From Chloroflexota bacterium (lineage in GTDB: Bacteria > Chloroflexota > Dormibacteria > Dormibacterales > Dormibacteraceae), in the NCBI GenBank assembly GCA_043740835.1, contig JAYUBK010000015.1, forward strand, positions 44,679 to 108,678: a stretch of DNA of 64,000 nt, given 5' to 3'. The position numbers and the translations under genes are program-made. Each line of letters begins with the position of its first letter. Position 1 is the stretch's first letter. Positions 10,517 to 55,670 of this stretch are shown here, in pieces. Under the pieces are notes generated by a model. The model saw only the letters and a program-made list of their open reading frames with translations. It made no database searches and was not told the DNA's origin.

Positions 10517-10527
10517 CTGTGCGGCTC

Positions 10528-10881
10528 CTATTGCCTTCCTGGAGGGGCGAAGCCCACGCTGCGACGCTCCTTCTGGGATTTCCGCTGGCGGCGCAGGAGA
10601 ACGACTCGGCTTTCGCCCGCGTCAACGATCTCCAGAAGGTGCCAGTTGTCAGTTGCGGCCGCGGTCAAACGCTCGACGAGCGTCTTTCCGTCAGCAACCT
10701 CGGCGACGCTGAGAACCTCCGTCCTGTACTCCCAGTCACGATCGCCGGTGCCGCCGCCGGCCATCGTCCCGGACGGCTGGGTGAGCTCGGTAACCTGTTC
10801 GTCGTCCGGATCGAAGTCGGGATCCTCGTCAGGCTCTTCGGGCAGTTGCTCCGGATCGAGCACCGCCTTGAGATCAGACAT
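10528..10881 (-). CDS. hypothetical protein, highly acidic N-terminus, DUF4177-like C-terminal half
   Basis: N-terminus DPEQLPEEPDEDPDFDPDDEQ, followed by WEYRTEVL....NWHLLEIVD...VVLLRRQ. Lies immediately upstream of the response regulator on the same strand. Confidence 0.55.
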   Translation of the reverse strand: MSDLKAVLDPEQLPEEPDEDPDFDPDDEQVTELTQPSGTMAGGGTGDRDWEYRTEVLSVAEVADGKTLVERLTAAATDNWHLLEIVDAGESRVVLLRRQRKSQKERRSVGFAPPGRQ

Positions 10882-40181: not shown

Positions 40182-41117
40182 TTAACCGCTGCGCGCCTTC
40201 ATGATGATCAGCACGGCAGGGCCGAGCAGGATCAGCCACAGTGTCGGGAAGATGCAGCCGACCATCGGAAGCATCATCTTGAGTGAGGCCTGGGCGGCCT
40301 TCTCCTCTGCCCGCTGACGCCGCTTGCGCCGCATCTCCTCGGATTGGAGGCGGAGGATCTTGGCGAGACCCACACCCATCTGTTCCGACTGGATAACGGC
40401 CTGGGTGAAGTTGTGCAGGTCTTCAACACCGCAGCGGCGGCCCATGTCGTCGAGCGCCTCCAGTCGCGGCCGGCCGAGTCGAACCTCCTGGAGGACGGTG
40501 TTGAACTCGTCGGCGAGGGCGTTCTTGAACTTGTCGGTTACGCGGGCCACGGCAGCGTCGAAACCAAGGCCCGCTTCGACGGCGATCGTCAGCAGGTCCA
40601 TGACGTCGGGAAGCGAGAGCTGGATCTCCTTGCGGCGCTTCTGAACCTCACCGTTGAGCCAGAAGGGAGGGCCGTAGTAACCGAGCACGGCGCCGACGGC
40701 CGCGGAGACGGCGAGCGCTACGGGGCTGTGGAAGAGCAGGCCGAGCAGGAGCCCGACGATGAAGAGGACCACCGCGAGGCCGAGGCGAAGGGCCGAGAAG
40801 TCAGAGGGCGACAGGTTGCCCGGCCGTCCCGCCAGGTTGAGTCGGTTCTGGAGGTCCTGGCGCTGCTTGTCGGGCGTTCGGTTGGCCAGGTACTTGCCGA
40901 GCCTCTCGATGGTGGGGCGGACGAAGCGCTCCTCGAACGATTTCTGGAGCTCGACCTCGTCGAGGGTCAAGGGCTTCTGCCCGGCGAAGGCCTGGAGGCG
41001 CTCCTGGACCATGTCCCCGGAGAGGGCGCTGGCATTGCGCGCCGAATACATGCCCCAGAACACGAGGAAGACCCCGCCTGCGGCGAGGACTCCGAACAGC
41101 AGCATCTGTGGGGGCAT
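40182..41117 (-). CDS. tadC: Flp pilus assembly membrane protein TadC (T2SS-F family)
   Basis: T2SSF-type domain (..LSLPDVMDLLTIAVEAGLGFDAAV..) with flanking TM helices. Follows tadB. Confidence 0.85.
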   Translation of the reverse strand: MPPQMLLFGVLAAGGVFLVFWGMYSARNASALSGDMVQERLQAFAGQKPLTLDEVELQKSFEERFVRPTIERLGKYLANRTPDKQRQDLQNRLNLAGRPGNLSPSDFSALRLGLAVVLFIVGLLLGLLFHSPVALAVSAAVGAVLGYYGPPFWLNGEVQKRRKEIQLSLPDVMDLLTIAVEAGLGFDAAVARVTDKFKNALADEFNTVLQEVRLGRPRLEALDDMGRRCGVEDLHNFTQAVIQSEQMGVGLAKILRLQSEEMRRKRRQRAEEKAAQASLKMMLPMVGCIFPTLWLILLGPAVLIIMKARSG

Positions 41118-41123
41118 TTTTCG

Positions 41124-42125
41124 CTAGACCTCGATTGCGGTGACTTTACCCATCACCAGATTGCCAAGGAAGATCATGAAGCAGGCCGCGCCGAGGATTG
41201 CCCATCCCACCGGGCTCTCGGTCATCGGCTTGAAGTAGGTAGGCGTCGCGAAGTACATGAAGACGGCAAGGATGATGGGGAGCCCGGTGATCAGCTGGCC
41301 GGAAGAGCGGGCGCTTGCCGTCAGTGTTGCGATCTGACCCTTGATCCGGATGCGCTCGCGAATCGTGAAGGCGATGTTGTCGAGGATCTCGGCCAAATTT
41401 CCGCCCACGGTGCGGTGGATTGCCACTGCGGTCACCATCAGGTCAAGATCGTCCGACTCGATGCGCTTCACCATGCTGCCCAGCGACTCTTCGATGGTGC
41501 CACCCAGGTTCATCTCGCGAACTGCTCGGGTGAACTCGTCCGCGATCGGCGGGCTGGCGTTCTTGGCGACGGTGTCCACCGCCTGGGCGAAGGAATAGCC
41601 GGCCTTGAGGGCATTGGAAAGCAGGATCAGAGTGTCACCCAACTGGTTGTTGAACGCCTTGAGCCGCGCCTTCTGGCGAAAGTTCACGTAGATGCCGGGG
41701 ATGAAGTAGCCGCCGACGCCCATCAGCACGGGGGCTAGGCCGATGCCTCCGAAGCGAATGACGCCGATGACGAAGAGCAGGAGAACGAGGCCGATCTGGA
41801 TCATGAAGTACTCCGACGTCCGCAGCTTGAGGTCGGCCTTGGCCAGGTTCTCCTGGAGTGAAGGCTTGCCCTTCTTCACGTTGCCCTTGCCGGCCTGATC
41901 GGCCAGGGGCTGGAAGATCCTGGCGACTCGCTCGCGGAAATTGGTGGGTGCGGGGACGGCAGGAAGACTCCCCGGAAAGCTGAGCGCACCCGCCTCGATG
42001 ACGCCGTACTCGGCCAGGCGCGCGGTGAGATCGGAGGATGCGGTGCGAACCTGGGCCAGGCCATAGAAGACAGCCATCACGCCCAGGCCGGCGATGATCG
42101 CGACGGCGATATGAGTCAGGTCCAT
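41124..42125 (-). CDS. tadB: Flp pilus assembly membrane protein TadB (T2SS-F family)
   Basis: T2SSF-type domain (..LGDTLILLSNALKAGYSFAQAV..). Lies downstream of cpaF. Confidence 0.85.
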   Translation of the reverse strand: MDLTHIAVAIIAGLGVMAVFYGLAQVRTASSDLTARLAEYGVIEAGALSFPGSLPAVPAPTNFRERVARIFQPLADQAGKGNVKKGKPSLQENLAKADLKLRTSEYFMIQIGLVLLLFVIGVIRFGGIGLAPVLMGVGGYFIPGIYVNFRQKARLKAFNNQLGDTLILLSNALKAGYSFAQAVDTVAKNASPPIADEFTRAVREMNLGGTIEESLGSMVKRIESDDLDLMVTAVAIHRTVGGNLAEILDNIAFTIRERIRIKGQIATLTASARSSGQLITGLPIILAVFMYFATPTYFKPMTESPVGWAILGAACFMIFLGNLVMGKVTAIEV

Positions 42126-42156
42126 GTCGGTCTACGCGCTCCTAAGTGTTCGGATT

Positions 42157-43716
42157 TCAGTAGAGCTCCTCAAAGGCGGGCTCGGATACAGGTATGAACA
42201 ACTCGTCGGGAAGATCCTCGCCGGCGGCTCTGATGGCGTCATGGCGCATCGGCTTGATGCCGGTCGCGGTGTGGTAGCCCACTGCCTTGCCATCGCGGAG
42301 GTTCACCTGCTTGAAAACGAAGATCTCCTGGGTCTGGATCTCGCCCTGGTTGATGCCGGTGATCTCAACGATGGAGACGATCTTGCGCGGTCCGCCGCGG
42401 AGGCGCTGCTGCTGAACGATGATGTGTACGGCGGCGGCCATCTGCTCGCGGATGGCCCGCGAGGGAAGGTCGGCGCCGGCCATCAGCACGAGAGTCTCCA
42501 GACGACCGAGAGCCTCGTGCGGGTTGTTGGCATGAAGCGTCGACATGGACCCGTCGTGACCGGTGTTCATCGCCTGCAGCATGTCAAGGGCCTCGCCACC
42601 GCGGCACTCTCCGACGATGATCCTGTCGGGCCGCATGCGGAGGCAGTTCTTGACGAGGTCGCGGATGGGCACGGCACCCTTGCCCTCCACGTTGGCGGGG
42701 CGGGACTCGAGGGTGATCACATGGTCCTGCTGGAGCGAAAGTTCGGCGGCGTCCTCGCAGGTGATGATCCGCTCCTCAGCCGGGATGAACGTCGACAGGA
42801 TGTTAAGCAGCGTCGTCTTTCCGGAGCCGGTGCCGCCCGAGACGATGCAATTGAGGCGGGCACGAACCGCCGCCTTGAGGAAGTGGATCATCTGCGGCGT
42901 CGCCGACTTGAAGACGAGCAGGTCGTTCGGTCCCAGCTTCTCCTTGGAGAACTTTCGGATCGTCATGCAGGGCCCTTTCAGGGCGAGGGGCGGGATGATG
43001 ACGTTGACACGGGAGCCGTCCTTCAGGCGGGCGTCGGCCATCGGTGAGGACTCGTCGACGCGGCGGCCGATCGAGCTGACGACGCGGTCAATGACCCTCA
43101 TGAGCTGCTTGTCGCTCTCAAAGGTCACGTCGGAGAGCATCGGCTGGCCACGGCGCTCGATGTAGATCTGCTTGGGGTGGTTGATCATGATTTCGGTGAT
43201 GTCGTTGTCGTTGAGGAGGATCTCCAGTGGACCAAGTCCGAGGATGTCGTCCATCAGAGATTCGATGAGCCTTTCCTTGTCCGACCGCGTCATCGTCAGG
43301 CCTGAATTGCGCACGTAGTCATCGGCCAGCTCCACGATCTTCTCGCGGACGAACTCGCGGTCGGTGACGTCGATCTTGTTGGCGTACTGCTCCAGGAGCT
43401 TGGCGTGGACCGTCGTCTTGGCGGAGGCGAAGGCCGGGGTGATGGCGATGGCGCCGCTGATGCCGCCAGCACGCTCAGCGAGGCCGCCGGGCGTGGTCGG
43501 GGGCGGAGCGGGGGCTGCCGGAGCGGGCACGACCGGGTGCGTTGCCGTGGCGCCGACGCCCGAGGCGGGGCTGGCCGGCGCCGCGAAGGTGGAGGGAACA
43601 GGGGGACCGCCGTTTCCCGCAGTCGGCGTGCTGGGGACCGGCGGAGACAGGGTCGGGGCGCTGGGTGCGCCAGACCGCTGCTGGTTCGCCTGGTTCACGC
43701 GGTCGAGGAGGCCCAT
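42157..43716 (-). CDS. cpaF: Flp pilus assembly ATPase CpaF/TadA
   Basis: 519 aa with a Pro/Ala-rich N-terminus. Motifs: Walker A SGGTGSGKTT, ..IITCEDAAEL.., ..RPDRIIVGECRGGEA.. and ..NTGHDGSMSTLHANN.. Confidence 0.95.
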   Translation of the reverse strand: MGLLDRVNQANQQRSGAPSAPTLSPPVPSTPTAGNGGPPVPSTFAAPASPASGVGATATHPVVPAPAAPAPPPTTPGGLAERAGGISGAIAITPAFASAKTTVHAKLLEQYANKIDVTDREFVREKIVELADDYVRNSGLTMTRSDKERLIESLMDDILGLGPLEILLNDNDITEIMINHPKQIYIERRGQPMLSDVTFESDKQLMRVIDRVVSSIGRRVDESSPMADARLKDGSRVNVIIPPLALKGPCMTIRKFSKEKLGPNDLLVFKSATPQMIHFLKAAVRARLNCIVSGGTGSGKTTLLNILSTFIPAEERIITCEDAAELSLQQDHVITLESRPANVEGKGAVPIRDLVKNCLRMRPDRIIVGECRGGEALDMLQAMNTGHDGSMSTLHANNPHEALGRLETLVLMAGADLPSRAIREQMAAAVHIIVQQQRLRGGPRKIVSIVEITGINQGEIQTQEIFVFKQVNLRDGKAVGYHTATGIKPMRHDAIRAAGEDLPDELFIPVSEPAFEELY

Positions 43717-43727
43717 CTGTTTAAGTG

Positions 43728-44972
43728 CTAGCCCCCGGGGGTCTTGGTCCAGAAGGCCAGGCGTTTGCCTGACCTCGCGGACCGGCCCTCGGAGCCGCCC
43801 AAGGGTACCAGAGAACCTACGAGTTCACGAATCTTTTGGCTGATGTCGGCCTCCGGAAAAAGCTTTGTGAAGGGCTCCGCCCGCTGCACGCTCTTGAGCA
43901 TCAGCTTTCCGTCACTGGGAAGGCGGACCAGGATCTTGGTTTCGAGGCTCGCCTCCACCTGGTGCACGGTGATGCCCGAGTTCGTTTCGGACCGATTGAG
44001 CACCAGCTTGATCCGCGTCGGCGGAATGTTGAGGCGCTGGAAGACGCGCAGCGCGAGCTTCGCCTCCTTCACGGCGGGCAGGCTGAGATCGACGAGGACG
44101 ACAATATGGTCAGCTCGTTCGATCGCCTCCAGCGTCACCTCGCCGAGGTGCGAGCTCGTGTCCACAACGACGTGGTCGAAACCCTCCTGGAGGATGCCGA
44201 GGATGGCCCGGGCGTGTTCGGCGGTTACGAGGTCGGCGTACTCCGGGCTCGGAGGCCCGAGGAGCACCCGGAACCCCCCGGGCGCCTCGGGCATCAGCGA
44301 CTCGATGAAGTCCTGGTCGACGTTGGGGTATGCCTCGACGACCTGGAAGATGTTGCGACCCGAGTCGAGGCCGAGGAGGACGCCGACATCGCCGAATTGG
44401 AGGTCGAAGTCAACCAGCGCGACGCGCCCCTGGGTCTCCTTGACGAGGGTCGCTGCCACGTTGATCGCAAGCATCGACTTGCCGACGCCGCCCTTGCCGC
44501 TGAACACCAGCGTGATGACCCCGGGACGCTTTTCGGGCGGCTCCTCGGCATCGGACTCGCCGTCCCTCCCGTCCTCGGCGGCACCCAACGCCTGCTGGCG
44601 CTTGATGATTTCGAGCTGGTGGACACGTCGGAGCGCCGCCACCAGCTCGTCGCCGCTGAAGGGTTTGACAAGGAACTCCCGTGCGCCCGCTTCCATGCCG
44701 CGCCGGAGGTACTCGCGGTCCTCCTGCACCGACATCAGGACAACCGCCGCATGCGGTGGCTCGTCGACGAGGATTTCCGTCGCTCGGATGCCGTCGCGGC
44801 CGGGCATGTTGACATCCATGAGGACGACGTCCGGCAGGAGCCGGCGGACCTCCTCGATCCCGGCATCAGCGTTCAGCGCCGTCGAGACGACGTCAATGTC
44901 GTCCTCGAAGCCGAGAAGCTTGCGGAGGTTATCGAGCGTCGCCGGGACGTCATCGATGATGACGACCCTGAT
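43728..44972 (-). CDS. cpaE: CpaE/TadZ-like ParA/MinD ATPase fused to an N-terminal receiver (REC) domain
   Basis: REC domain (IRVVIIDD ... VVLMDVNMPGRDG ... KPF), a linker, and the deviant Walker A FSGKGGVGKS. The REC N-terminus lies upstream of the first ATG (44819). An ATC at 44972 follows a GGAGGAG SD after a 9-nt spacer. Confidence 0.8.
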   Translation of the reverse strand: MRVVIIDDVPATLDNLRKLLGFEDDIDVVSTALNADAGIEEVRRLLPDVVLMDVNMPGRDGIRATEILVDEPPHAAVVLMSVQEDREYLRRGMEAGAREFLVKPFSGDELVAALRRVHQLEIIKRQQALGAAEDGRDGESDAEEPPEKRPGVITLVFSGKGGVGKSMLAINVAATLVKETQGRVALVDFDLQFGDVGVLLGLDSGRNIFQVVEAYPNVDQDFIESLMPEAPGGFRVLLGPPSPEYADLVTAEHARAILGILQEGFDHVVVDTSSHLGEVTLEAIERADHIVVLVDLSLPAVKEAKLALRVFQRLNIPPTRIKLVLNRSETNSGITVHQVEASLETKILVRLPSDGKLMLKSVQRAEPFTKLFPEADISQKIRELVGSLVPLGGSEGRSARSGKRLAFWTKTPGG

Positions 44973-44993
44973 CGGTAGGTTCTCCTCCGTGGC

Positions 44994-45902
44994 TTACCCG
45001 CTCAACGCCTGCGCAAAGGCCGGAAACTTGGCGATGATGTCGTCGGCCCTGACACCGGCTATTGCTCGTGCTGCGTTGACGCTGTTGCAGCTGGCGTCGG
45101 GGGCGGTCGGCGTCGACGCGTAGTCCTTATACGACTCGAGGATGTAAGTGACCTGCGCGTTGTTCTGGAACCATTTGAGATACGAGGCGTCGCACGCCGT
45201 CGTCATGACCGTCAGGCTCGTCGCGGCGGCCGTTGGCGGGGGCTGCGCCCCCGCTCCCTGGCCGCTGGACCCACCCGCCGGGGCAGTTGAAAGGTTGGCG
45301 GCGCCCACGCGCAGGATGCGGAGATTGGAGAAGACGACCGCCGCCGCTGCCTTCTTGGCCGATCCCATGGTGGCGACGACCGAGATGTAGTCACCGGGCT
45401 GGGGGTAGTTGGCCACTCCGATCTGCTCGCTGGTCGGGATCGTGAACGCGACGTAACCGGCCGGGATGGGGAGGAATGCGGCTTGGGCGCCGGCAACCGC
45501 GTCACCGGGCTTGGCGACGAGGTTGGCGAGGATCGGCTGGTCCTTCGAGATGTTGACCTCGGCGATGTCGTTCTGAACGAGCTTCAACGCCTCCGACAGC
45601 AACTGTTCGGACTTGACGGAGGACGCCACCGTGAAGGCGCCGGGGGGCACGTCGCTCTGTGCGATGTTCTTGATCTGGAGCTGATCGGCCGAGAGGATCT
45701 GCGTCCGCAGCGGGATGTCCTTGCCCGCGTAGACGACGTGCGTTGTCGGGCCACCCACACCACCTGACTTGGTGGAACCCAGGTTCGAGAGGACGAATAC
45801 GGCGCCGAAGGCGACTAGCGCCAGGAAAGCACCAATGATGATGAAAATCCGACCGCCGCTGGCCGCACGTGGTCGCGATGGTCCGGGGGGCGCTACTGCC
45901 AT
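44994..45902 (-). CDS. cpaB: Flp pilus assembly protein CpaB/RcpC (SAF domain)
   Basis: N-terminal TM helix (RIFIIIGAFLALVAFGAVFVL) followed by a SAF-like segment (..VVYAGKDIPLRTQIL..). GGAGGTGA SD upstream. Confidence 0.85.
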   Translation of the reverse strand: MAVAPPGPSRPRAASGGRIFIIIGAFLALVAFGAVFVLSNLGSTKSGGVGGPTTHVVYAGKDIPLRTQILSADQLQIKNIAQSDVPPGAFTVASSVKSEQLLSEALKLVQNDIAEVNISKDQPILANLVAKPGDAVAGAQAAFLPIPAGYVAFTIPTSEQIGVANYPQPGDYISVVATMGSAKKAAAAVVFSNLRILRVGAANLSTAPAGGSSGQGAGAQPPPTAAATSLTVMTTACDASYLKWFQNNAQVTYILESYKDYASTPTAPDASCNSVNAARAIAGVRADDIIAKFPAFAQALSG

Positions 45903-46031
45903 TGGTTTACCTCACCTCCGAGAGCTCGGGGTTGAAAGATCGTCGCCATTATATGGACGCTTCGGCGTGAATCCGACGACGCTGGTCACGGGTGCTGCCG
46001 ATCGCCACAGCGCAGTGGCGGGAAATCGCGA

Positions 46032-46084: not shown

Positions 46085-46261
46085 CTAGGTGTTAAGAGCG
46101 CTGACAACGTTCGAGAAGACGTTCTTGATCTGACCACCCATCGTAAGAAGGATGACGATGACGACGATCGAGACGAGAACCAGGATCAAGGCGTACTCCA
46201 CCATTCCCTGACCTTCCTGGCGAATGAGCAGATTCCGCATTTTCCAGCTGAGATTCATCAT
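46085..46261 (-). CDS. flp: Flp family type IVb pilin (58 aa prepilin)
   Basis: MMNLSWKMRNLLIRQEG-QGMVEYALILVLVSIVVIVILL.. carries the Flp G-x4-EY processing motif. AAGGAGGTG SD upstream. Confidence 0.9.
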   Translation of the reverse strand: MMNLSWKMRNLLIRQEGQGMVEYALILVLVSIVVIVILLTMGGQIKNVFSNVVSALNT

Positions 46262-46380: not shown

Positions 46381-47415
46381 CTAGAGGCCGTTGGCGATCG
46401 TCGGCGGCAGTTTGTAGAGCTGACGGACGTCGGCGATCGATGCGCCACGAACGTCGATGCGCTCAGCACTGACACTGCCCAGGCCCCAGGCGCCGGCGAG
46501 TCGGACGTGGTCCGGCGTGGTGGGGTCGATGCCCATGATCCGGCTGCAGGTCGCGTCGACAGCGACGCAGTCGGTGCCCATCACGACAACGCCCGTGCGC
46601 CGCGGGTCCCCGAAGATCGGGCCGTCCCCCTCCATCCCGATGATGCCGTCGACGAGCGCCAGGTGGGGCCGAAAGGTCGCGTACAGGGCCAGGATCGCGA
46701 GCGGGATCCCGTGCCAGTGGAGAATGTTCTTTGGCCATCCGTAGCGGCTTCCGGGAACGATCCCAAAGAGATTCTTCAGGCTCAGCGACACGCCCGCCCA
46801 GTGGTGGGCTTTGAGCTTGGGCATGGAGACGAAGTAGTCGGCGTCGACGACGGTCTTGGGCGCGAACAGGGTGGGGATGGACCAGTAACCGCCCTTGAGA
46901 GGGGTCTCGACGAGGTCGTCATGGTTGAGGTCCACGAAGCGGACGCCATGCCGCGCCAGCATCACGTCGACGCCCGTCCGGGCCAGAAGTGTCTGCGAAT
47001 CGCTTTCAAAGGCGGCACCTTCGGCGACTATGATCTCGGCCGCGCCAAGATCCTTGAATAGGCCAATCGCCGCTTCGATGAAGCGAACGTCGGTCGTCGC
47101 GGGCCCGCTTGAGCCGATCGCCACCAGGTTGGGCTTGAGCACGACCCGCTTTCCTCTAACCTTCGCGACCGAATCTCCGCTGAGCTGCCACGCGTGGTGG
47201 AGCGCCCCTTCCAGGTCGGCGCCGTAGTCCGCGCTGCGAGTGATGGCAACCGCCGGCCGTGGCCCGAGGTAGACGCCGAGTGCCTGCAGACGCCAGCGAG
47301 CAAGGTCGAGCGGGCTGAAGCCGCCGAACCACTGGCTGAGGTAGGCGGTCTCGCCGGCTATCAAACCCAGCAAGCCAATTCGAATCAGGTTGCGGCGGGT
47401 GAGCTTCCGCTTCAA
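46381..47415 (-). CDS. DUF362 domain protein with twin-arginine signal
   Basis: TTG at 47415 overlaps the upstream TGA (TTGA) and gives MKRKLTRRNLIRIGLLGLIAG.. (Tat motif TRRNLI). DUF362-type core ..GKRVVLKPNLV.. Confidence 0.8.
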   Translation of the reverse strand: MKRKLTRRNLIRIGLLGLIAGETAYLSQWFGGFSPLDLARWRLQALGVYLGPRPAVAITRSADYGADLEGALHHAWQLSGDSVAKVRGKRVVLKPNLVAIGSSGPATTDVRFIEAAIGLFKDLGAAEIIVAEGAAFESDSQTLLARTGVDVMLARHGVRFVDLNHDDLVETPLKGGYWSIPTLFAPKTVVDADYFVSMPKLKAHHWAGVSLSLKNLFGIVPGSRYGWPKNILHWHGIPLAILALYATFRPHLALVDGIIGMEGDGPIFGDPRRTGVVVMGTDCVAVDATCSRIMGIDPTTPDHVRLAGAWGLGSVSAERIDVRGASIADVRQLYKLPPTIANGL

Positions 47416-48263
47416 AGCCGGGCGGCCTCCATGGCGAGGGCGCCGAGAGCGGTCGTCGCGGGATTGGCGTTCCAGTCGCCCGCGCCGCCCTGGGCGGAAA
47501 GGAGGCGCGCGGCCGGCGCCGAGACGTCGACGCTCCATGCGGACAGCGCGAGCACGCTCCAGGCCAGGGACAGAGCGCCGGGGAGCGGTTCGATGCTGCG
47601 GCGCAGGTAGTCGATACCGGCCGGGATCTTCGGGTCCGTGAACTTCGGATCGCCGGCGAAAAGAGCCATCAGGACGAGGGAGGTCTCGGGGATGCTCGCC
47701 GCGACCTCATTGGCGATCATCGTCGTGTTGCCGTAGTTCCAGCCTCCGCCCGTGCAGGCGCGATCGAGGAGCATCGCGCGGCCCTCGGCGAGCGCACCTC
47801 GGTCGGCGGCACCGGCTGCCCGGATGCCAAGGAGCGCGAGGGCGGTCGGCTCGATCCACCCGAAGGTGGCCGGCGTCCACGCCCAACCGACGAGAGTTCC
47901 GTCGAGCCGGCTGATCGAGGGCGGAACCTTGACCGACACCGAGCGATGGCCGAGGAGCCACGCCGCTCCCCTGGCGACACCGTCGGTCACGCCGCTGGCG
48001 GCCAGTGCCCAAACGGCCCATGCAGTCGTCCATCCGCTCTCGCGGTCGGCGTGGCTGACCCCCCACCCCCCATCACGATGCTGCCCTGCGAGCAGCCAGC
48101 GCACCGCGGCGTCGACGTTCGCTGCCTCGCCGGCCATGCTCAGGAGGCCGAGAGCGGTGGCTTCCGTGAACGCCTGCCCGCCGGCGCGAAATCCCCAACC
48201 GCCCTTTGAATCCTGCGTGTTGCGGAGGTACCCGATGGCTGCGTCATGGCTCGTCATTCCCAT
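47412..48263 (-). CDS. prenyltransferase/squalene-oxidase repeat protein (alpha-alpha toroid)
   Basis: Repeated ..L...Q...GGWG.. units (YLRNTQDSKGGWGF, LLAGQHRDGGWGV, ..CTGGGWNY.., ..SAQGGAGDWN..). No signal peptide. Confidence 0.75.
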   Translation of the reverse strand: MGMTSHDAAIGYLRNTQDSKGGWGFRAGGQAFTEATALGLLSMAGEAANVDAAVRWLLAGQHRDGGWGVSHADRESGWTTAWAVWALAASGVTDGVARGAAWLLGHRSVSVKVPPSISRLDGTLVGWAWTPATFGWIEPTALALLGIRAAGAADRGALAEGRAMLLDRACTGGGWNYGNTTMIANEVAASIPETSLVLMALFAGDPKFTDPKIPAGIDYLRRSIEPLPGALSLAWSVLALSAWSVDVSAPAARLLSAQGGAGDWNANPATTALGALAMEAARL

Positions 48264-48313: not shown

Positions 48314-48344
48314 TAAAAAAAGAGCCCCCACGGTGGGGGCTCTT
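48314..48344 (-). terminator. intrinsic terminator of flp-2
   Basis: Minus strand reads AAGAGCCCCCA-CCG-TGGGGGCTCTT followed by TTTTTTT, about 30 nt after the flp-2 stop. Confidence 0.8.
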
Positions 48345-48373: not shown

Positions 48374-48556
48374 TTAGGTGTTAAGCGCTGATACGACGTT
48401 GGAGAAGACGTTCTTGATCTGGCCGCCCATCGTAAGAAGGATAACGATGACCACGATCGAAACGAGAACCAGGATAAGGGCGTACTCGACCATGCCCTGA
48501 CCCTCCTGGCGGGTCGTAAGACCCCGGAGCTTCCAAATGAGTTTGTCCACTTTCAT
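48374..48556 (-). CDS. flp: Flp family type IVb pilin, second copy (60 aa prepilin)
   Basis: MKVDKLIWKLRGLTTRQEG-QGMVEYAL... The last 45 residues are identical to flp-1 despite many synonymous nucleotide differences. GAGGAGGTGA SD upstream. Confidence 0.9.
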   Translation of the reverse strand: MKVDKLIWKLRGLTTRQEGQGMVEYALILVLVSIVVIVILLTMGGQIKNVFSNVVSALNT

Positions 48557-48618: not shown

Positions 48619-48647
48619 ATCCTAGCGATCCGCTCAAACCTTGGCAA
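48619..48647 (-). promoter_or_regulatory. sigma-70-like promoter candidate for flp-2
   Basis: Minus strand reads TTGCCA - 17 nt - TAGGAT, about 60 nt upstream of the flp-2 start. Confidence 0.4.
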
Positions 48648-48705: not shown

Positions 48706-51700
48706 TCAGGCGATCGGGAAATCGGCGACGACCTCGGTTCCGCCTCCCGCGTGGCTCTTGACCTCGACCGTCCCGCCGAGCGCGCCGGCACGCTCCCGCA
48801 TCCCGACGATGCCCAGCTTCTGAGAGCTGTCCATTTCGTAGGCCAGGGTGTCGAAGCCAACCCCGTCGTCCCGGATGCGCACTGCCACCTTCCCCGGCTG
48901 CAACGTGAGCCCGACATCGGCAGTCTTGGCACCGGCATGGCGTTGGACGTTGGTCAAGGCCTCCTGGATGATCTTGAAAAGGGCTTCCTCATGTCCCGGC
49001 CCCAGCCTGCGCTCCTGACCATGGACCTTAAAGCGGCAGGCGATGCCGGTCCGGTCGTGGTACTCGTTCGCGTAGCGCCGCATGGTGGCGATGAGTCCGA
49101 GTTCGTCGAGTGAGTCAGGCCGGAGGTCGAACATGAACTTGCGCATGTCGGTCATGGCGTTACGGACGAGGCCCTTGAATTCGTCCAGTTCCTCTTGCAG
49201 CAACTCGGGCTTCTTGCGCGCCGTCCGCTCCAGGATCTCGGCTTTCAGGACGAGGTCGGCGAGGACCTGCGAAGGACCGTCGTGGAGGTCTCGCGCGATG
49301 CGCAGCCGCTCGCTCTCGATCGCTTCATAGACTTGCAGGGCCGTGGCGGGTGGCGGCGGGAGCTGGACGATCTTGATCTGCTGGGTGTCGCTGGTCGCGT
49401 TCTGGGCCGCGGCAAGGGCGGCGACGGCCGCGTCGCGATCGACCTGAGCCTCGGCCAGGAGAGCAGCGGCGGACTCCTGGGCAGCGGCCTTCGCCTCCGC
49501 AGCCTGCGCCAACTCCGACTGGGCGGACGCGATGAACGCATCCGCGGCGATACGTGCCTCGGCGACGGCCGCGGCCGTCTGCTCCCGTTCCTGTTCGGCC
49601 GCCGCACGGAGGGCGGCCGCGGCTTCGCCTGCTTCGGCCTTCGCGGCGACAGCCTCGTCACGCTCGGCCTGGGCGGAGGCCTTCAAAGCCGCTGCGGCTT
49701 CGTTTGCATCGGCTACGACGGCCGCGGCCTCGTCACGCTCGGCCTGGGCGGCGGCGCGGAGCGCTTCCGCGGCCAGCGCCGCCTCGGCGGCGGCCGCAGC
49801 AGTCTGCTCTCGCTCGGCCTCGGCACTTGCCAGCAGCGAGTCCGCCGCCTCCCGCGCCTGCAAGGCGGCGGCAACAGCTTGCTCACGCTCGTCCTGGGCG
49901 GCGGCGCGCAGCGCCTCGGCAGCTTGGCGAGCCTCCGCCGTGACAGTCGCGGCCTGGTCGCGCTCGGCCTCGGCGGCGGCCCGGAGAGCCTCGGCGGCGG
50001 CCTGGGCCGCCTCGGCGGCCAGGCGCGCGGCCGCACTGACGGTTGCGGCCTCGTCGCGCTCGGCCTGAGCGGCGGCACGTAGTACCTCGGACGCCTCGTG
50101 TGCCTCGGCGACGGACGCCGCGGCCGCCGCGGTCACTTTCTCCGCCTCCGCATGCGCCAAGGCGCGCTGGCCGGCGGCGGCCTCTTCGGCTGCGGCAAGC
50201 AAGGCCGCTCCGCGCTCGGAGGCCGTTTCCAACTCGCCCTGCGCGGCGACGCGCAGGGCGACGGCCCCCCTCTCTGCCTCGGCCAGCGCTGCCACAGCCT
50301 GGTCTCTTGCAGCCTGGGCGGCCGCGCGGAGCCCGGCGGCGGCCTCGTTTGCCTCGGCGGCCGCCTCGTTTGCCTCTGCGGCAGCGGCGGCAGCCCGGTC
50401 ACGCTCCTCCTGGGCCGCAGCCCGCAATGCTTCCGCGGCCTGGCGAGCCTCCGCCGTGGCGGTTGCGGCCTGGTCGCGCTCGGCCTGGGCGGCGGCTCGC
50501 AACGCCTCGGCAGCCCGGTGGGCTTCGGCGGTGGCTACCGCGGCCCGCTCGGTGACCTCTCCCACCTCCGCTTCCGCGGCGGCGCGGTATCCGGCCGCGG
50601 TTTCTTCGGCCGCGGCCAGTGAAGCCGCCCCGCGTTCGGCGGCCGTGTCCCACTCGGCCTGGGCGGCGGCACGCAGCAGGGCGGCCACCTGCTCCCCCTC
50701 CGCCAGCGCTGCGGCGGCCTGGTCTCGGTCGGCGTGAGCGGCGGCGCGGAGTGCGGCAGCGGCCTCATTTGCCTCGGCGGCCGCGGCGGCGGCCTGGTCG
50801 CGCTCGTCCTGAGCGGCGGCGCGCAGCGCTTCAGCAGCCTGGCGAGCCTCCGCTGCAGCAGTTGCAGCCTGGTCGCGCTCGGCGTTAGAGGCGGCACGCA
50901 GCTCCTCCGCAACCTCGTGGGCTTCGGCAAGAGCCGCTTCAGCCCGCGCGACCAGGTCGTCCGCCTCCGCTTCTGCAGCGGCGCGGTGGCGGGCGGCAGC
51001 CTCTTCGGCCGCAGCAAGAGAGGCAGCCGCCAGCTCGGCGGCCTTGTCCAACTCGGCCTGGGCGGACGCGAGCAGGATGGCGGCCGCCTGCTCCGCCTCG
51101 GCAATCTCCGCGACGGCCTTTTCCCTATCAGCGTGGGCGCTTGTGCGGAGCCGGGCGGCGGCCTCTCCCGCCTCGACGGCAGCGACGGCAGCCTGCTCAC
51201 GCTCTTCCTGGGCAGCAATCCGAAGCGCCTCGGCAGCTGCGTTGGCCTCGGCGGCGGCGGCGGCGGCCTGGTCAAGCTCGTCCTGGGCCGCAGCCCGCAG
51301 CGCCTCGGCAGCCTCGACAGCCTCGGTTGCCTCGGCGGCTGCGGCGGCGGCCTGGTCAAGCTCTTCCTGGGCCGCGGCGCGGAGCGCGGCCGCGGCTGCA
51401 GTAGCCTCGCCGGCGGCAGCCGCCGCCTGGTCGCGCTCGGAGTGCGCAGATGCGATCAGGGCGGCGGCGGACGCCTCCGCGGCGGCCAGGGCCGCCTTAG
51501 CCTGCTCACGATCATCAGTCGCCTGCTCACGCTCCTCCTCAGCCTGCTCACGCTCCGTCTCTGCCGCGGAGCGGAGTGCGGCGGCGGCGATGTTGGCCAC
51601 AGCGATGGCGGCGGCGGCCTTGTCGCGTTCGGTCTTGGCCTCGGCGAGCAGCTCGGTCGACGCCTCTTCGGCGGCGCTCATCGCGGCGCTGGCAAGGTCG

Positions 51701-52230
51701 CGTTCGGCCTGGGCCGCGGTGAGCAGTGCCGACGCGGCCTGCTGCGCCTGGGTCTGGGCCGCCTGCATCCTGTCACGCTGCGATTCGAGTTCGGCATAGA
51801 GCGCTTCGGCCGCCTCCACCGCCGCCGCGTTGACCTCCTGTTCCTGGAAGGCGGCGAGTACCGCCTTATGGAGGGTCTGAGAAAAGTGGAGACGGTCGCG
51901 AGTCTCGCGCAGCGCCACCTCGATTCCGTGCTTGATCTCTGCCCGCGCCTGCGCCTTGTTTACAGCGCTCTCTCGCTCATCGGGAGAAAAGCGCTCCGGC
52001 GTCCGGATCACATGGCGTTTGATGATCTCGACCTCGGCGAGGTCATCACCGGCGGCGCCGACCGCACGCTCAAGGTGGATCACCGAACTCTGGAGCCGGG
52101 CCACCTCGCCCTCGATCCAGGTAAGGATGCCCGTCTGGTCCTGCGGCGTCTTCTCCTCGGTCCTGCTCATTGTTTCCTTGAACGCTACTTGGAACGGTAC
52201 TTGGTTCCCTTTGTCACGGAACCGAGTCAC
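48706..52230 (-). CDS. soluble HisKA_3-type sensor histidine kinase with a giant Ala-rich tandem-repeat coiled-coil region (1174 aa)
   Basis: The C-terminal 225 aa hold ..ERLRIARDLHDGPSQ.. (HisKA_3 H-box) and the HATPase N/G boxes (..EALTNVQRHA.., ..DDGVGF.., ..GIVGMRERA..GG..). No TM segment. Alternative start at ATG 52170. Confidence 0.85.
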   Translation of the reverse strand: MTRFRDKGNQVPFQVAFKETMSRTEEKTPQDQTGILTWIEGEVARLQSSVIHLERAVGAAGDDLAEVEIIKRHVIRTPERFSPDERESAVNKAQARAEIKHGIEVALRETRDRLHFSQTLHKAVLAAFQEQEVNAAAVEAAEALYAELESQRDRMQAAQTQAQQAASALLTAAQAERDLASAAMSAAEEASTELLAEAKTERDKAAAAIAVANIAAAALRSAAETEREQAEEEREQATDDREQAKAALAAAEASAAALIASAHSERDQAAAAAGEATAAAAALRAAAQEELDQAAAAAAEATEAVEAAEALRAAAQDELDQAAAAAAEANAAAEALRIAAQEEREQAAVAAVEAGEAAARLRTSAHADREKAVAEIAEAEQAAAILLASAQAELDKAAELAAASLAAAEEAAARHRAAAEAEADDLVARAEAALAEAHEVAEELRAASNAERDQAATAAAEARQAAEALRAAAQDERDQAAAAAAEANEAAAALRAAAHADRDQAAAALAEGEQVAALLRAAAQAEWDTAAERGAASLAAAEETAAGYRAAAEAEVGEVTERAAVATAEAHRAAEALRAAAQAERDQAATATAEARQAAEALRAAAQEERDRAAAAAAEANEAAAEANEAAAGLRAAAQAARDQAVAALAEAERGAVALRVAAQGELETASERGAALLAAAEEAAAGQRALAHAEAEKVTAAAAASVAEAHEASEVLRAAAQAERDEAATVSAAARLAAEAAQAAAEALRAAAEAERDQAATVTAEARQAAEALRAAAQDEREQAVAAALQAREAADSLLASAEAEREQTAAAAAEAALAAEALRAAAQAERDEAAAVVADANEAAAALKASAQAERDEAVAAKAEAGEAAAALRAAAEQEREQTAAAVAEARIAADAFIASAQSELAQAAEAKAAAQESAAALLAEAQVDRDAAVAALAAAQNATSDTQQIKIVQLPPPPATALQVYEAIESERLRIARDLHDGPSQVLADLVLKAEILERTARKKPELLQEELDEFKGLVRNAMTDMRKFMFDLRPDSLDELGLIATMRRYANEYHDRTGIACRFKVHGQERRLGPGHEEALFKIIQEALTNVQRHAGAKTADVGLTLQPGKVAVRIRDDGVGFDTLAYEMDSSQKLGIVGMRERAGALGGTVEVKSHAGGGTEVVADFPIA
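49400..51830 (-). repeat. in-frame coding tandem repeats (about 25-residue units nested in about 135-140-residue super-repeats)
   Basis: Units resemble AEALRAAAQAERDQAA.A.AEA..A, roughly 30 times. At least three super-repeats end in ..AEAH.A.E.LRAA... The corresponding DNA shows recurring GCCTGGTCGCGCTCGGC strings. Confidence 0.85.
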
Positions 52231-52566
52231 ATCAAAAATGGAACCGCGGAGGGGGATGGTAGATTACGGCAACCCCATGCCCACCGCCATTGTCCCTTCC
52301 CCCAACGCCGGGGTCCCGGGAAGGGGTCGCGCGGACCGCCGAGAATTTCTGCTGAGCCGCGTCGTTCCGGCTCCGCTCGCGAGCTTATTCGTCGCCGACC
52401 AGCTTGCGCTGTTGGGCGATTCGGTGCCTGCGGTTGCTCGCGCAGGCGCCACTCCGACGGCCTGGCGGACCTCGCAGAGGTCGGTCTGGGAGGCGTCGGC
52501 CGTGCTCGCCGGTCGGGGGGGCACGCTGACCGTCGAATTGGGCCCTGAGTTGGCGGCCTACCGGAA

Positions 52567-54078
52567 ATGCGTCGCTCGTCCCGCTTTTCTGCGGCGGCGC
52601 ACCTGACCTCCCGCCTGGGACCGCGCACCCTGCTCTTTGGAGGGGTCTTCATCGTGATCCTGAGCGGCTTTATCAGCTCGGTCCAGGACCCCGACTTCTG
52701 GTGGCACATCCGAACCGGTCGGTGGATCCTCGACAACGGCCGGCTTCCCAGTCAGGACCTGTATACATTCACGGCCGTCGGGCATCCGTGGCTTGACCAC
52801 GAGTATCTCACCGAGATCGGGATGTGGCTCCTTTTCAAGAACGGCGGCTTCATCGCCATCAGCCTCATCTTCGGCGCGCTGACGTACGCCGCCTTCCTTC
52901 TCATCCACCGGGCCGCAGACGGCAGCCGCCGACCCTACGTGATCTCGGCCCTGGCGATCGCGCTCGCCGCCATCGCGGGGGCGCCGATCTGGGGCCCGCG
53001 GCCGCAGATGATCACGTTCTTCTTTGTCTGCCTGCAGCTGTATTGGCTGCGCCGCTACCTCGAGGGGAGGAGCCGGACGATCAACTACTTCCCCCTCGTG
53101 CTCGTGCTCTGGGCAAACCTGCACGGCGGCTTCGTCGTCGCCTTCGCCTTTTTCGGGATCGCCATCGCGGCCGAGGCCATCGGTTGGATCATCGATCGCC
53201 GGGACCCCTCCCATCGCGCGCGCCTCAAGACCCTTTTCCGGGTCACCATCGTGTCGCTGGCGGCCGTCCTGGCCACGCCGCACGGGCTCTCCGTCTACCT
53301 GAACCCTCTCGAGACCCTGACCAGTCCAGCCCAGCGCGCGAACATCGTCGAGTGGTTTTCACCCAACTTCCACGAGAGCTTCCTGTTGCCCTTCCTGGGC
53401 ATGGTCCTCCTCGTGATCATCCTCTTCGCGGTCCGGCGCCCGACTGTGTTTGACCTGCTGCTGACGCTGGCCACGCTCGCACTTTCGCTGGAGTCGGTGC
53501 GCCACATCGCCCTCTTCATCGCCGCGGTGACGCCGATCCTCATCGCGCAGCTGTCGGACACCTGGTTGGATGAGTCGGCGCGGCGCGGGCTCCACCTCCC
53601 ACGTGCCCTCCCTTCGCCTCTCTTTGCGACGATCACCGTCGTCGCGCTGCTGGTAATCGCGGGCGCCACGGGGGTTCGCATCGTCAACCAACTGGCGGAT
53701 CAGCAGAACCAGATTGCAAAGCAGTATCCCGTGGGCGCCGCCGACTATCTGGCCCGCCATCCGGAGATCGGGACCCGGATGTTCAACTCCTACGGCTGGG
53801 GCGGTTACCTGATCTACAGGTTTTACCCCGACCCCAACCGCCGCGTCTACGCCTTCGGAGAGGCGTCCGTTCTCGGCGACCGGGTGATCAACAATTACCA
53901 GGAGATCGCCGTCCTGCGCGGCAACTGGGCGACTCAGCTCCAGAAGGACAACGTCGACTACGTGGTCTTCAACACGGATGAGGCCCTCACAAACGTCCTC
54001 CTCTACCTGCCGGGCACCTGGGAGAAGGTGTATGAAGACCCCGAGGCAGTCATCTTCACGAGGAAAGGCCCGCCCTAG
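52567..54078 (+). CDS. large polytopic membrane protein, GT-C-like putative glycosyltransferase
   Basis: More than 10 predicted TM helices, then a soluble C-terminal domain. N-terminal ..DPDFWWHIRTGRWILDNGRLPSQDLYTF... Family not firmly recognised. Confidence 0.55.
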   Translation: MRRSSRFSAAAHLTSRLGPRTLLFGGVFIVILSGFISSVQDPDFWWHIRTGRWILDNGRLPSQDLYTFTAVGHPWLDHEYLTEIGMWLLFKNGGFIAISLIFGALTYAAFLLIHRAADGSRRPYVISALAIALAAIAGAPIWGPRPQMITFFFVCLQLYWLRRYLEGRSRTINYFPLVLVLWANLHGGFVVAFAFFGIAIAAEAIGWIIDRRDPSHRARLKTLFRVTIVSLAAVLATPHGLSVYLNPLETLTSPAQRANIVEWFSPNFHESFLLPFLGMVLLVIILFAVRRPTVFDLLLTLATLALSLESVRHIALFIAAVTPILIAQLSDTWLDESARRGLHLPRALPSPLFATITVVALLVIAGATGVRIVNQLADQQNQIAKQYPVGAADYLARHPEIGTRMFNSYGWGGYLIYRFYPDPNRRVYAFGEASVLGDRVINNYQEIAVLRGNWATQLQKDNVDYVVFNTDEALTNVLLYLPGTWEKVYEDPEAVIFTRKGPP

Positions 54079-55670
54079 TAAAGGACGAAGACGAACGTCC
54101 CCCTTGACGAAAACGCGGGAGTCCCCAGCGAGGCCGGCGGGCCGCCCGAGGTGTCTGCGGGCGACCACACGACATATCGGATCGAGTGGTCACGCGCCCA
54201 GCCGGCGATGTCGCCCTGGCCACTCATCAGACCATTGACCTCAACGGTCTTCTGGTTCCAGTTGTAGGTCTCGCTGTACTGGCCCACGTAGACGGTGTCG
54301 GGCGTATAGGCGGGGATGAAGAGGCCCAGCCGAGAGGACGCGAGAACGATCCCGCCGGGGTGGCTTCCGAGCCACAGAATGGCGTTGTAGTCGGAAGTTG
54401 TCAGCGCATACTGCCCCTGGCCCGCCACCAGAAAGGGAGCGAGCAGGAGAAAACAGCTCCCGATCGTCGCAAACGACGCGTAGGCGAACGGGACCAGCCC
54501 CCTCGCCCGCTCTTTGAGCCGAGGCACGACAACCTCGTACATGCCGCGCGCGGCCATCACCACCAGGGGTAGGTAGACGCCGTCGAAAAAACGCCGGCGA
54601 AGGTTGCCGGCGGGGTTAGGGAGCCACAGGATCACGGCCAGCAGGACGAGCCACGCGAGCAGGAAGACGTCCTCGCGGGAGCGACGCCGGGCCAGCAATG
54701 GCACAGCAAGGGCCGCGAGGAGCAGTTGTGGGAGCAGCGCCATCGCCAGGCTTACGGCGTCGGGCGGCAGGTTGTTGCGCCACTGCGAGCTCCAGCGCGT
54801 GACCTCCGGGTTACCGAGGAACGCGAAATACGAATATGCGATGTAGGGAGCCGGGATGGCGAAGGCGACGAAGGCGGCGATCCAGCCGGCCCGATTGGCG
54901 GGCCGGCGGACAAGAACGGCGACGCCCACGGCTCCCGCGAGCAGGATCGGCATCTGGGGGTGGATCGCAGCCTCGCCAAGCCACGCGAGGCCCCCCAGCA
55001 GGCCAAGGCGGATGCCTCCGCGCGCGACCGCCCGCAGCGTCAGGACGGCACCCAGAGCCTGCAGAGCAGCCGCCCACACGAAGTGCGGAAGGGCGAGAAG
55101 CGAGTAGAACACGCTCAGCTCCGGCATCCGCCAGTCGAGGGTGTCCGTCTGGGCGCCGAAGACGACGGGTTTGCCCAGGGCCTGGAGCACGTAGCCGAGG
55201 CCCAGCCCGGTGGCCAGGAAGACGATCGCGAACTTGCGCGCGGTGGCTCCCTCGACGAAATGCTCGATGAAGATCCAGCTCGCGTAGAGGAGCAGGAACG
55301 CGCCCACCACGCCGGCGAGATGGAAGATCAGAAGCAGGGGCAGGTGGAGAAGTGCCGACAGGTGCCCGAGGGCGATCCACCAGAGGAAGAAGTAGACGGG
55401 AGGGCTCGGCTCCGTCGTGTAGCGATTGGTCCACACCCAGCTCCCCTCCCAGCCTTCGCGCATTTTCGCGAGGTAGGTGTTGGCGTCGTCGCCAAGGAAG
55501 AAGAACCCCATGAAAGTCTGCCCCGACGGCGCGGTGAGATGCGCATAGGCGTAAGGCAGAAGGGTCAGGACCGTGAGAACGGTCGCAAGCACAAAAACGA
55601 TCCGCGGCGCCCGCCAGCCTCCGCCTTCGCGGGGGATGGCGAGGACCGGCCTAGATACCTCGGCCGCCAC
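54075..55670 (-). CDS. large polytopic membrane protein, GT-C/ArnT-PMT-like putative glycosyltransferase
   Basis: More than 10 TM helices plus a C-terminal soluble domain. Immediately downstream of, and overlapping, the ppm1-like gene. Confidence 0.55.
   Translation of the reverse strand: MAAEVSRPVLAIPREGGGWRAPRIVFVLATVLTVLTLLPYAYAHLTAPSGQTFMGFFFLGDDANTYLAKMREGWEGSWVWTNRYTTEPSPPVYFFLWWIALGHLSALLHLPLLLIFHLAGVVGAFLLLYASWIFIEHFVEGATARKFAIVFLATGLGLGYVLQALGKPVVFGAQTDTLDWRMPELSVFYSLLALPHFVWAAALQALGAVLTLRAVARGGIRLGLLGGLAWLGEAAIHPQMPILLAGAVGVAVLVRRPANRAGWIAAFVAFAIPAPYIAYSYFAFLGNPEVTRWSSQWRNNLPPDAVSLAMALLPQLLLAALAVPLLARRRSREDVFLLAWLVLLAVILWLPNPAGNLRRRFFDGVYLPLVVMAARGMYEVVVPRLKERARGLVPFAYASFATIGSCFLLLAPFLVAGQGQYALTTSDYNAILWLGSHPGGIVLASSRLGLFIPAYTPDTVYVGQYSETYNWNQKTVEVNGLMSGQGDIAGWARDHSIRYVVWSPADTSGGPPASLGTPAFSSRGTFVFVLY

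Follow-up and report, generated by a model that had tools for sequence, protein, structure and literature searches.

The window analyzed here is a stretch of 64,000 nucleotides (nt) from a Chloroflexota bacterium of the GTDB class Dormibacteria (GenBank assembly GCA_043740835.1, contig JAYUBK010000015.1, forward-strand positions 44,679 to 108,678), and the gene in question encodes a histidine kinase on the minus strand at the head of a Tad/Flp pilus locus (Table 1). The protein is predicted to be a soluble kinase of the DegS type in which the linker between an N-terminal helical hairpin and the catalytic core has been expanded into an 810-residue repeat tract. Family identity, expansion of the linker, reproducibility across assemblies, purifying selection, and conserved synteny were established by the comparisons described below. 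The overall reading, in which a DegS-type kinase heads the Tad locus, the expanded linker acts as a spacer, and the receiver domain (REC) fused to the pilus ATPase CpaE is the partner, is considered reasonably probable.

Table 1. Features of the kinase gene and the adjoining Tad/Flp locus in the window
Feature	Position	Strand	Basis or remark
DegS-like soluble HisKA_3 histidine kinase, 1154 amino acids (aa)	48706..52170	(-)	Open reading frame (ORF), ribosome-binding site, Pfam/NCBIfam, homologues
N-terminal helical-hairpin domain, aa 1-115	51826..52170	(-)	Homologue alignment, AlphaFold2 (AF2), profile comparison
Ala/Glu-rich tandem-repeat helix, aa 116-925	49396..51825	(-)	Tandem Repeats Finder (TRF), autocorrelation, repeat search, AF2
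Pro-rich flexible linker, aa ~926-944 (..SDTQQIKIVQLPPPPATAL..), between rod and dimerization and histidine phosphotransfer (DHp) domain	49339..49395	(-)	AF2, AF2 of short homologue
Kinase core: DHp (H-box RIARDLHDGPSQ) and catalytic and ATP-binding (CA) domain	48706..49338	(-)	Pfam, PDB matches, Foldseek
Promoter-like site of the sigma-70 type (TTGCCA-17-TAGGAT) within the 149 nt between kinase and flp	48619..48647	(-)	Consensus match only
Flp pilin, first of two (Pfam E = 7e-11)	48374..48556	(-)	Intrinsic terminator follows at 48320-48344
Second Flp pilin	46085..46261	(-)	
RcpC/CpaB	44994..45911	(-)	
REC-CpaE/TadZ fusion, receiver and ParA/MinD-type ATPase	43728..44975	(-)	Pfam, motifs, PDB matches
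CpaF/TadA ATPase, TadB, TadC (remaining Tad machine)	40182..43824	(-)	

The minus-strand ORF at 48706-52230 comprises 1174 open codons when counted from GTG 52230, the start of the longest frame. ATG 52170 is the likely start in its place because it is preceded by AAGGA, gives 1154 aa, and agrees with orthologue N-termini of the form MS.TE..; residue numbers throughout count from this ATG. The only Pfam matches were to HisKA_3 (PF07730, E = 1.6e-16) and HATPase_c (PF02518, E = 1.1e-10), both in the last ~200 residues. The H-box with the phospho-accepting His that marks the DHp domain of HisKA_3 kinases is present (RIARDLHDGPSQ), as are the N, G1, and G2 boxes of the CA domain (QEALTNVQRHA, DDGVGF, and GMRERAGALGG), and the CA domains of DesK and VraS match. 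NCBIfam returned partial matches to the MctS, LiaS, UhpB, and NarX cores, and the nearest solved structure of the kinase core was that of DesK (sequence E = 4e-12; Foldseek E ~1e-13). No hydrophobic (transmembrane) segment was found in the kinase sequence, and upstream of the core the AF2 model contained amphipathic helices only. A preliminary description of this DNA had proposed a soluble protein with a conventional HisKA_3 core, and the Pfam matches together with the absent hydrophobic segment point to the same conclusion. The long plus-strand ORFs that overlie the gene between 49100 and 52550 (for example, 50734-52548, with 604 aa, and 49195-50082) are Ala-rich shadow frames and not genes; an antisense ORF was rejected as the true gene, since the minus-strand frame connects two conserved domains.

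In its core, the kinase shares 50-67% identity with hundreds of soluble kinases of 330-360 aa, which come mostly from Candidatus Dormibacter(ae)ota metagenome-assembled genomes (MAGs) and many of which are labelled DegS by the source annotation. Residues 1-115 align with the N-domain of these short homologues (..LLxWIxGE..RL...DLAEADVIRRHVIxxPERFSPxER..). In the AF2 model of one of them (P0006, 346 aa, built on a 78-sequence alignment), this domain forms a helical hairpin (helices 16-60 and 67-121; predicted confidence, pLDDT, 94-97), followed by a disordered linker (124-132, pLDDT <50) and then DHp and CA. The layout proposed for the family is thus a ~115-aa N-terminal helical hairpin, a short disordered Pro-rich linker, DHp, and CA, and the earlier statement that no recognizable sensor domain precedes the core had to be given up, aa 1-115 being a conserved hairpin common to hundreds of ~350-aa DegS-like kinases. 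Among the relatives, the Pfam DegS domain (PF05384) matched the Firmicute proteins strongly, those of Herpetosiphon marginally, and those of Dormibacterota not at all. In hhalign profile comparisons, an intermediate group matched the Dormibacterota N-domain on one side (E = 6.5e-16) and the PF05384-matching Firmicute DegS N-domain on the other (E = 2.4e-6); the direct comparison between the two ends of the chain was not significant (E = 0.11). Given these transitive links and the shared N-domain, the protein was classified as a diverged DegS-type soluble HisKA_3 kinase, the probable Dormibacterota member of the family, with a hairpin that appears remotely related to the DegS N-domain. Foldseek searches with the P0006 model and the full-protein model returned matches to the kinase core only and nothing for the hairpin or the repeat tract. 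A homology search with the N-domain alone returned no matches even though one homologue in the collection (P0001) contains the domain, which reflects a limit of index sensitivity.

The spacing between the H-box and the RFSP..ER motif, which lies at the hairpin turn, was measured over 69 homologues. It was 67-97 aa in most of them and 119-165 aa in 10 of the 69, rising to 436 aa in P0001 and 897 aa in the window protein. P0001 comes from a second species (locus L001, 75% aa identity) and carries a related tract of ~400 aa in the same gene of the same locus; most of its difference from the window protein lies in two block indels, one of 211 and one of 222 aa. Among the ten homologues with a spacing of 119-165 aa, the linkers have independent A/E/R/Q-rich insertions, such as those of P0003, P0049, and P0060. 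Since the short homologues have the same N-domain and the same locus position, the repeats are an expansion of the hairpin-to-DHp linker, typically ~20 residues long, to roughly 10 times the usual spacing. The second hairpin helix has been lengthened at its C-terminal end as a 75-nt (25-aa) unit was duplicated in tandem many times over and 399/420-nt blocks were duplicated as well, the outcome being an 810-residue amphipathic helix of Ala, Glu, Arg, and Gln. An exhaustive phmmer search of 1.84 billion representative proteins returned no comparable kinase among its best 150 matches; the only one of them to contain the tract was a 476-aa fragment of the window protein itself, and the other long matches were PAS/GAF or tandem kinases. 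The long tract was found in 0 of 80 GTDB species loci and 0 of 7 JGI loci, and the intact full-length protein was absent from a collection of 15 billion proteins. A scan of JGI metagenomes with patterns spanning the junction of repeat tract and kinase found no relative, and a second scan found short-linker forms only. The word-indexed homology search with the full-length protein gave one match, being swamped by Ala-rich words.

The tract at aa 116-925 consists of ~32 diverged units of 25 aa with the consensus EAAAALRAAAQAERDQAAAAAAEAR, nested in super-repeats of 133/140 aa. Its identity autocorrelation peaks at lags of 25, 50, 75, and 133/140 residues. At the DNA level, TRF reported 75-nt arrays and one 399-nt array (2.2 copies, 75% identity), and a repeat search found a 75-nt register with 16 copies and a 300-nt unit that recurs 5 times, at spacings of 96/420/399/399 nt; the copies have diverged to 60-87% nt identity. 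The composition is A 45%, E 15%, R 7%, L 7%, and Q 6%, with 0 Pro, 12 Gly, and a net charge of -83. No family was assigned to the tract by Pfam or NCBIfam. The hydrophobic moment has one dominant period of 3.58 residues (= 25/7), with a power of 176, where 200 shuffles reached 77 at most, which indicates a coherent, almost straight amphipathic stripe made up mostly of Ala and one Leu per unit. In the AF2 model of the full protein, a helix runs from residue 12 to 928 with breaks only at 217-219, 525-528, 642-653, 806, and 817; the model is a monomer in which the pLDDT of the rod is 45-80 and any fold-back is not reliable. The rod would measure ~120 nm if fully extended (810 x 0.15 nm) and would be shorter if folded back at its 4-5 Gly-containing breaks. 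Just ahead of DHp, aa 929-943 (..VQLPPPPATA..) are non-helical, with pLDDT <50 for 925-941, and this PPPP break interrupts the helix between the input module and DHp helix 1, as the corresponding segment does in the short homologue.

The ~810-residue tract given in the preliminary description is confirmed; nearly all of it is predicted to form helix, and its amphipathic period is coherent. The super-repeats put there at three or more are present, their number being 4-5 rather than 3. The coiled-coil input module that was also proposed was not supported. The tract is an expanded form, specific to this lineage, of a linker that is otherwise short and disordered, and it is parted from DHp by a low-confidence Pro-rich segment (..IKIVQLPPPPATALQ..), so that it probably does not pass on a signal as a rigid helix. 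Other kinds of Ala-rich or charged sequence were considered for the tract. A single alpha-helix (ER/K) domain, which would call for a very high share of Glu, Lys, and Arg, ladders of i/i+4 E-K/R salt bridges, and no apolar stripe, was rejected on the basis of the composition (A 45%, E 15%, R 7%), the lack of Lys in the consensus, and the apolar stripe with period 3.58; contrary to ER/K helices, the tract has only 5 acid-to-base i+4 pairs. An antifreeze-like Ala-rich helix was rejected in view of the A/E/R/Q/D-dominated unit without a regular Thr position and the net charge. Genome-wide drift toward Ala was rejected as well, the kinase gene being the only Ala-rich gene in the window and the remaining Ala-rich ORFs its antisense shadows.

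The gene order around the kinase was compared across relatives. Close Dormibacterota relatives have a glycosyltransferase cluster, two polytopic membrane proteins without Pfam match, a PEMT-family methyltransferase (variably present), the kinase, flp, RcpC, REC-CpaE, CpaF, TadB, TadC, and then DUF421. The order kinase-flp-RcpC-REC_CpaE-CpaF was found in ~33 GTDB loci, from Dormibacterota plus some Bacillota and Chloroflexota, and in Dormibacterota a gene of this family consistently opens the Tad/Flp locus. The flp pilin gene and Tad locus described earlier as lying downstream of the kinase were confirmed, with the correction that the adjacent pilin gene is the first of two. No terminator was found in the kinase-flp gap. 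DegS-like kinases also occur near Flp/Tad loci with REC-CpaE in Bacillota, Solirubrobacterales, and Anaerolineales, and near flp in Herpetosiphon (loci L065, L067, L068, L072, L073, L081, and L080/L084, most of them with a DegU-like neighbor, the exceptions being L065, L080, and L084); the association of kinase and Tad genes therefore reaches well beyond Dormibacterota.

Two REC domains, and no others, are encoded in the 64 kb: that of the REC-CpaE fusion and that of an orphan OmpR-type regulator at 9794-10621, which is flanked by a racemase and a desaturase-like gene; the same two had been named in the preliminary description. The CpaE receiver matches PF00072 with 96 bits (E = 2e-27) and has the motifs IIDDV, LMDVNMPG, LMSVQ, and LVKPF, which supply the DD pocket, the acceptor D, S, and K. 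This D-D-D-S-K quintet is kept in the CpaE receivers of all orthologous loci, which are 62-80% identical, and the best PDB matches of the domain include NarL, DesR, VraR, and EvgA, partners of HisKA_3 kinases. A LuxR/GerE helix-turn-helix (HTH) domain was found neither anywhere in the window nor, for any of ~60 Dormibacterota loci, in the 6 kb on either side of the kinase, and the adjacent DegU (REC and LuxR HTH) that belongs to the DegS family was found in neither. The absence of an adjacent NarL-type regulator, noticed at the outset, thus extends to every Dormibacterota orthologue examined. In Bacillota, Chloroflexota, and Solirubrobacterales relatives, a LuxR/GerE HTH domain lies directly beside the kinase. 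From the conserved synteny, the canonical receiver, and the lack of a LuxR HTH nearby, we infer that REC-CpaE is the most likely phospho-acceptor of the kinase; as a phosphotransfer candidate, it had been a sensible suggestion. Phosphorylated REC-CpaE would then directly control assembly or positioning of the pilus machine with no transcription factor involved.

A second Dormibacterota subgroup (L039-L060) has the DegS-like kinase beside a homologue of the 503-aa membrane protein found next to the kinase in the window, with a HAD hydrolase downstream and no Tad genes. The PEMT gene is replaced there by a divergently transcribed stand-alone receiver (for example, L052 4987-5436, minus strand, 149 aa), which is 91-99% identical among ten of these loci. 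Here again the kinase is paired with a receiver without DNA-binding output, and this was counted in favor of the REC-CpaE reading.

For the tract itself, the question of whether it is real was largely answered by a second assembly. Collapse or expansion of repeats in a short-read assembly, about which concern had been voiced, could have been suspected from the repetitive 75% GC DNA and from the missing intact protein in the 15-billion-protein collection. However, a 66-kb MEGAHIT contig assembled independently (L007, ENA sample ERZ27314309) is 99.92% identical to window positions 38706-60136 (21.4 kb) and gap-free over the whole tract, so the tract length is identical in both assemblies; the longest exact DNA repeat inside the tract is 25 nt, far below read length, and with the copies diverged the tract is therefore resolvable by short reads; and the same gene of the second species holds the related tract. 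An artefact is scarcely credible on this evidence. The tract could be real and yet nearly neutral or degenerating, the product of runaway duplication that a permissive linker tolerates while the gene itself is being lost. The linker is a hot spot with the independent expansions noted above, very long versions occur in only two lineages, and L007 has a premature stop within the tract: relative to window position 50159 (L007 9978), TTG is changed to TAG at codon 671, so that the gene is called in two parts, an N-terminal one of 670 aa and a kinase of 476 aa (P0122), and A794P is also present. The stop could be a population variant, a pseudogenizing allele, or a sequencing error. Against neutrality, dN/dS relative to P0001 was 0.17 for the repeat (349 alignable codons, with an alignment of repeats that could be mis-registered), compared with 0.13 for the N-domain and 0.19 for the kinase, and this low value indicates that the rod protein sequence is under purifying selection similar to that on folded domains. 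The frame is also open over 810 codons that join two conserved domains, the amphipathic phase is preserved, and the divergence of the copies implies that the expansion is old and retained, so that a neutral origin with ongoing loss was judged improbable. Less credit still was given to a true signaling coiled coil, in which a long parallel dimeric input helix would propagate changes to DHp. The amphipathic period is coherent over 810 residues, the predicted helix is nearly continuous, and the hairpin and DHp ends are both expected to be dimeric, but the PPPP segment lies between rod and DHp and has a disordered equivalent in the short homologues, Ala predominates in the core, with a single Leu in every 25 residues, and orthologues differ in tract length from ~0 to 810 aa, which fits poorly with phase-sensitive signaling. 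Because the rod prolongs the second hairpin helix and ends in a Pro-rich segment, and because orthologues function with almost no linker, such signaling is unlikely; because the PPPP segment is flexible, the rod was read as a tether instead of a helix that passes on a signal. It would act as a spacer, tether, or scaffold and set the distance or reach between the N-domain, which may dock or dimerize, and the catalytic core. This role is speculative and is offered as a best guess, with an antiparallel Ala-core bundle as a possible alternative.

The partner is the other point on which the interpretation turns. The kinase might act through a transcription factor of the DegU/NarL type, the orphan gene of which lies elsewhere in the genome, and so control flp/tad transcription, the CpaE receiver being served by another kinase or at least not phosphorylated by this one. 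HisKA_3 kinases usually pair with NarL/LuxR regulators, a promoter-like site lies ahead of flp, and a DegU-like regulator adjoins the kinase in Bacillota, Chloroflexota, and a Solirubrobacterales MAG, even near a Tad locus with REC-CpaE (L067, L068, L072, L073, and L081). Set against this are the LuxR HTH searches of the window and the ~60 Dormibacterota loci, the pairing with a stand-alone REC in the other Dormibacterota subgroup, and the canonical and highly conserved CpaE receiver, and the orphan regulator was regarded as possible though doubtful. The reading with REC-CpaE as partner and the rod as spacer is preferred, and several points weigh against it. The window N-domain had no direct match to PF05384 at E <= 1. 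The REC-CpaE partnership is proposed from the conserved neighborhood; where Bacillota and Chloroflexota loci hold both candidates, it is the DegU-like regulator that adjoins the kinase, and an orphan regulator of this type outside the 64 kb examined could be the real partner. TadZ receivers have been described as atypical, non-phosphorylated domains that serve protein-protein interaction (bioRxiv 10.64898/2026.07.08.737194). The rod behind the conjectured tether is modeled as a monomer at the low confidence given above, the selection estimate shares the uncertainty of the repeat alignment, and the L007 stop may mean that the full-length protein is dispensable in some cells. In its most specific form, the preferred reading would place the Dormibacterota Tad machine under post-translational control by a dedicated soluble DegS-type kinase that phosphorylates the canonical receiver of the positioning ATPase CpaE/TadZ without a transcription factor, with the linker stretched by selection to a ~100-nm Ala-core helical rod that acts as a tether or ruler and fixes how far from the hairpin docking site the catalytic core can reach. 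This version was considered rather unlikely.

Further observations were made on the genes around the kinase. The long-linker lineages (window/L007 and L001) share an insertion in the Tad locus between the first flp and RcpC (window 46381-48263 and 46085-46261), which contains a prenyltransferase/squalene-hopene-cyclase-like protein, a DUF362 protein, and the second flp, and which short-linker relatives do not have. The window has just a 396-nt gap (52171-52566) where most Tad-linked Dormibacterota loci, L001 among them, have the PEMT-family methyltransferase gene, flanked by the genes of the 503-aa membrane protein and the kinase. RcpC/CpaB and REC-CpaE share a reading frame, parted by a single TAA (window 44973-44996). 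No ATG, GTG, or TTG stands between the GGAGGAG ribosome-binding site of REC-CpaE and its first receiver strand IRVVIIDD, and the likely initiator is the ATC codon at 44975-44973. The two polytopic membrane proteins without Pfam match (52567-54078, plus strand, 503 aa; 54075-55670, minus strand, 531 aa) are conserved beside the glycosyltransferase cluster and may be GT-C-like envelope enzymes. Hardly any Dormibacterota locus lacks the gene of the 503-aa protein next to the kinase, an association steadier than that of the Tad genes.

No description of a Tad-associated DegS-like kinase, of phosphorylated CpaE receivers, or of Ala-rich repeat kinases was found in the literature searched, and as far as could be found, the conserved arrangement of kinase, Tad genes, and REC-CpaE is undescribed. 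With a canonical receiver on CpaE/TadZ and no DNA-binding regulator nearby, direct phospho-control of a Tad assembly ATPase becomes testable. The natural series of spacings (67-97, 119-165, 436, and 897 aa), in which the longest versions are under purifying selection, offers a system for the question of whether the length of a linker that joins a docking domain to a kinase core matters, and the kinase illustrates how Ala-core 25-residue repeats build very long rods. If the ruler version is correct, a spatial, length-encoded parameter would be part of two-component signaling. The organisms are uncultured, so the impact will be limited until heterologous protein work is done.

The system resembles several known ones in part. 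Long bacterial rod and coiled-coil proteins such as Streptomyces Scy and FilP, and alacoil packing, likewise involve hundreds of residues of amphipathic helix built from tandem units. Scy and FilP are rods with non-heptad repeats, a period between heptad and hendecad, and an Ala-rich apolar stripe; the period of the window tract (25/7 = 3.57) lies in the same interval and its apolar stripe is Ala-rich, whereas those proteins are cytoskeletal, the window tract is a linker within an enzyme, and no sequence homology between them was detected. DesK shares the fold and sequence of the DHp and CA domains with the window kinase, but it is a membrane thermosensor in which the signal enters through a continuous helix, and the window kinase is predicted to be soluble with a flexible Pro-rich linker ahead of its core. 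DegS of the Bacillus subtilis type (PF05384, PF07730, and PF02518) is likewise soluble, without a transmembrane segment, and has a helical N-domain followed by HisKA_3 and HATPase_c; the window kinase differs in lacking a direct PF05384 match and an adjacent DegU, in heading a Tad/Flp locus, and in carrying an 810-aa rod between N-domain and DHp where the spacing in relatives is ~10 times shorter. Proteobacterial TadZ/CpaE has the same ParA/MinD-like ATPase with an N-terminal receiver fold and is encoded between RcpC/CpaB and CpaF. The receivers described there are atypical (bioRxiv 10.64898/2026.07.08.737194), whereas D-D-D-S-K is present here in every orthologue and a kinase is encoded in the locus. 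If the partnership holds, a kinase-linked canonical receiver would represent a regulatory logic unlike that of the atypical, non-phosphorylated proteobacterial TadZ receiver.

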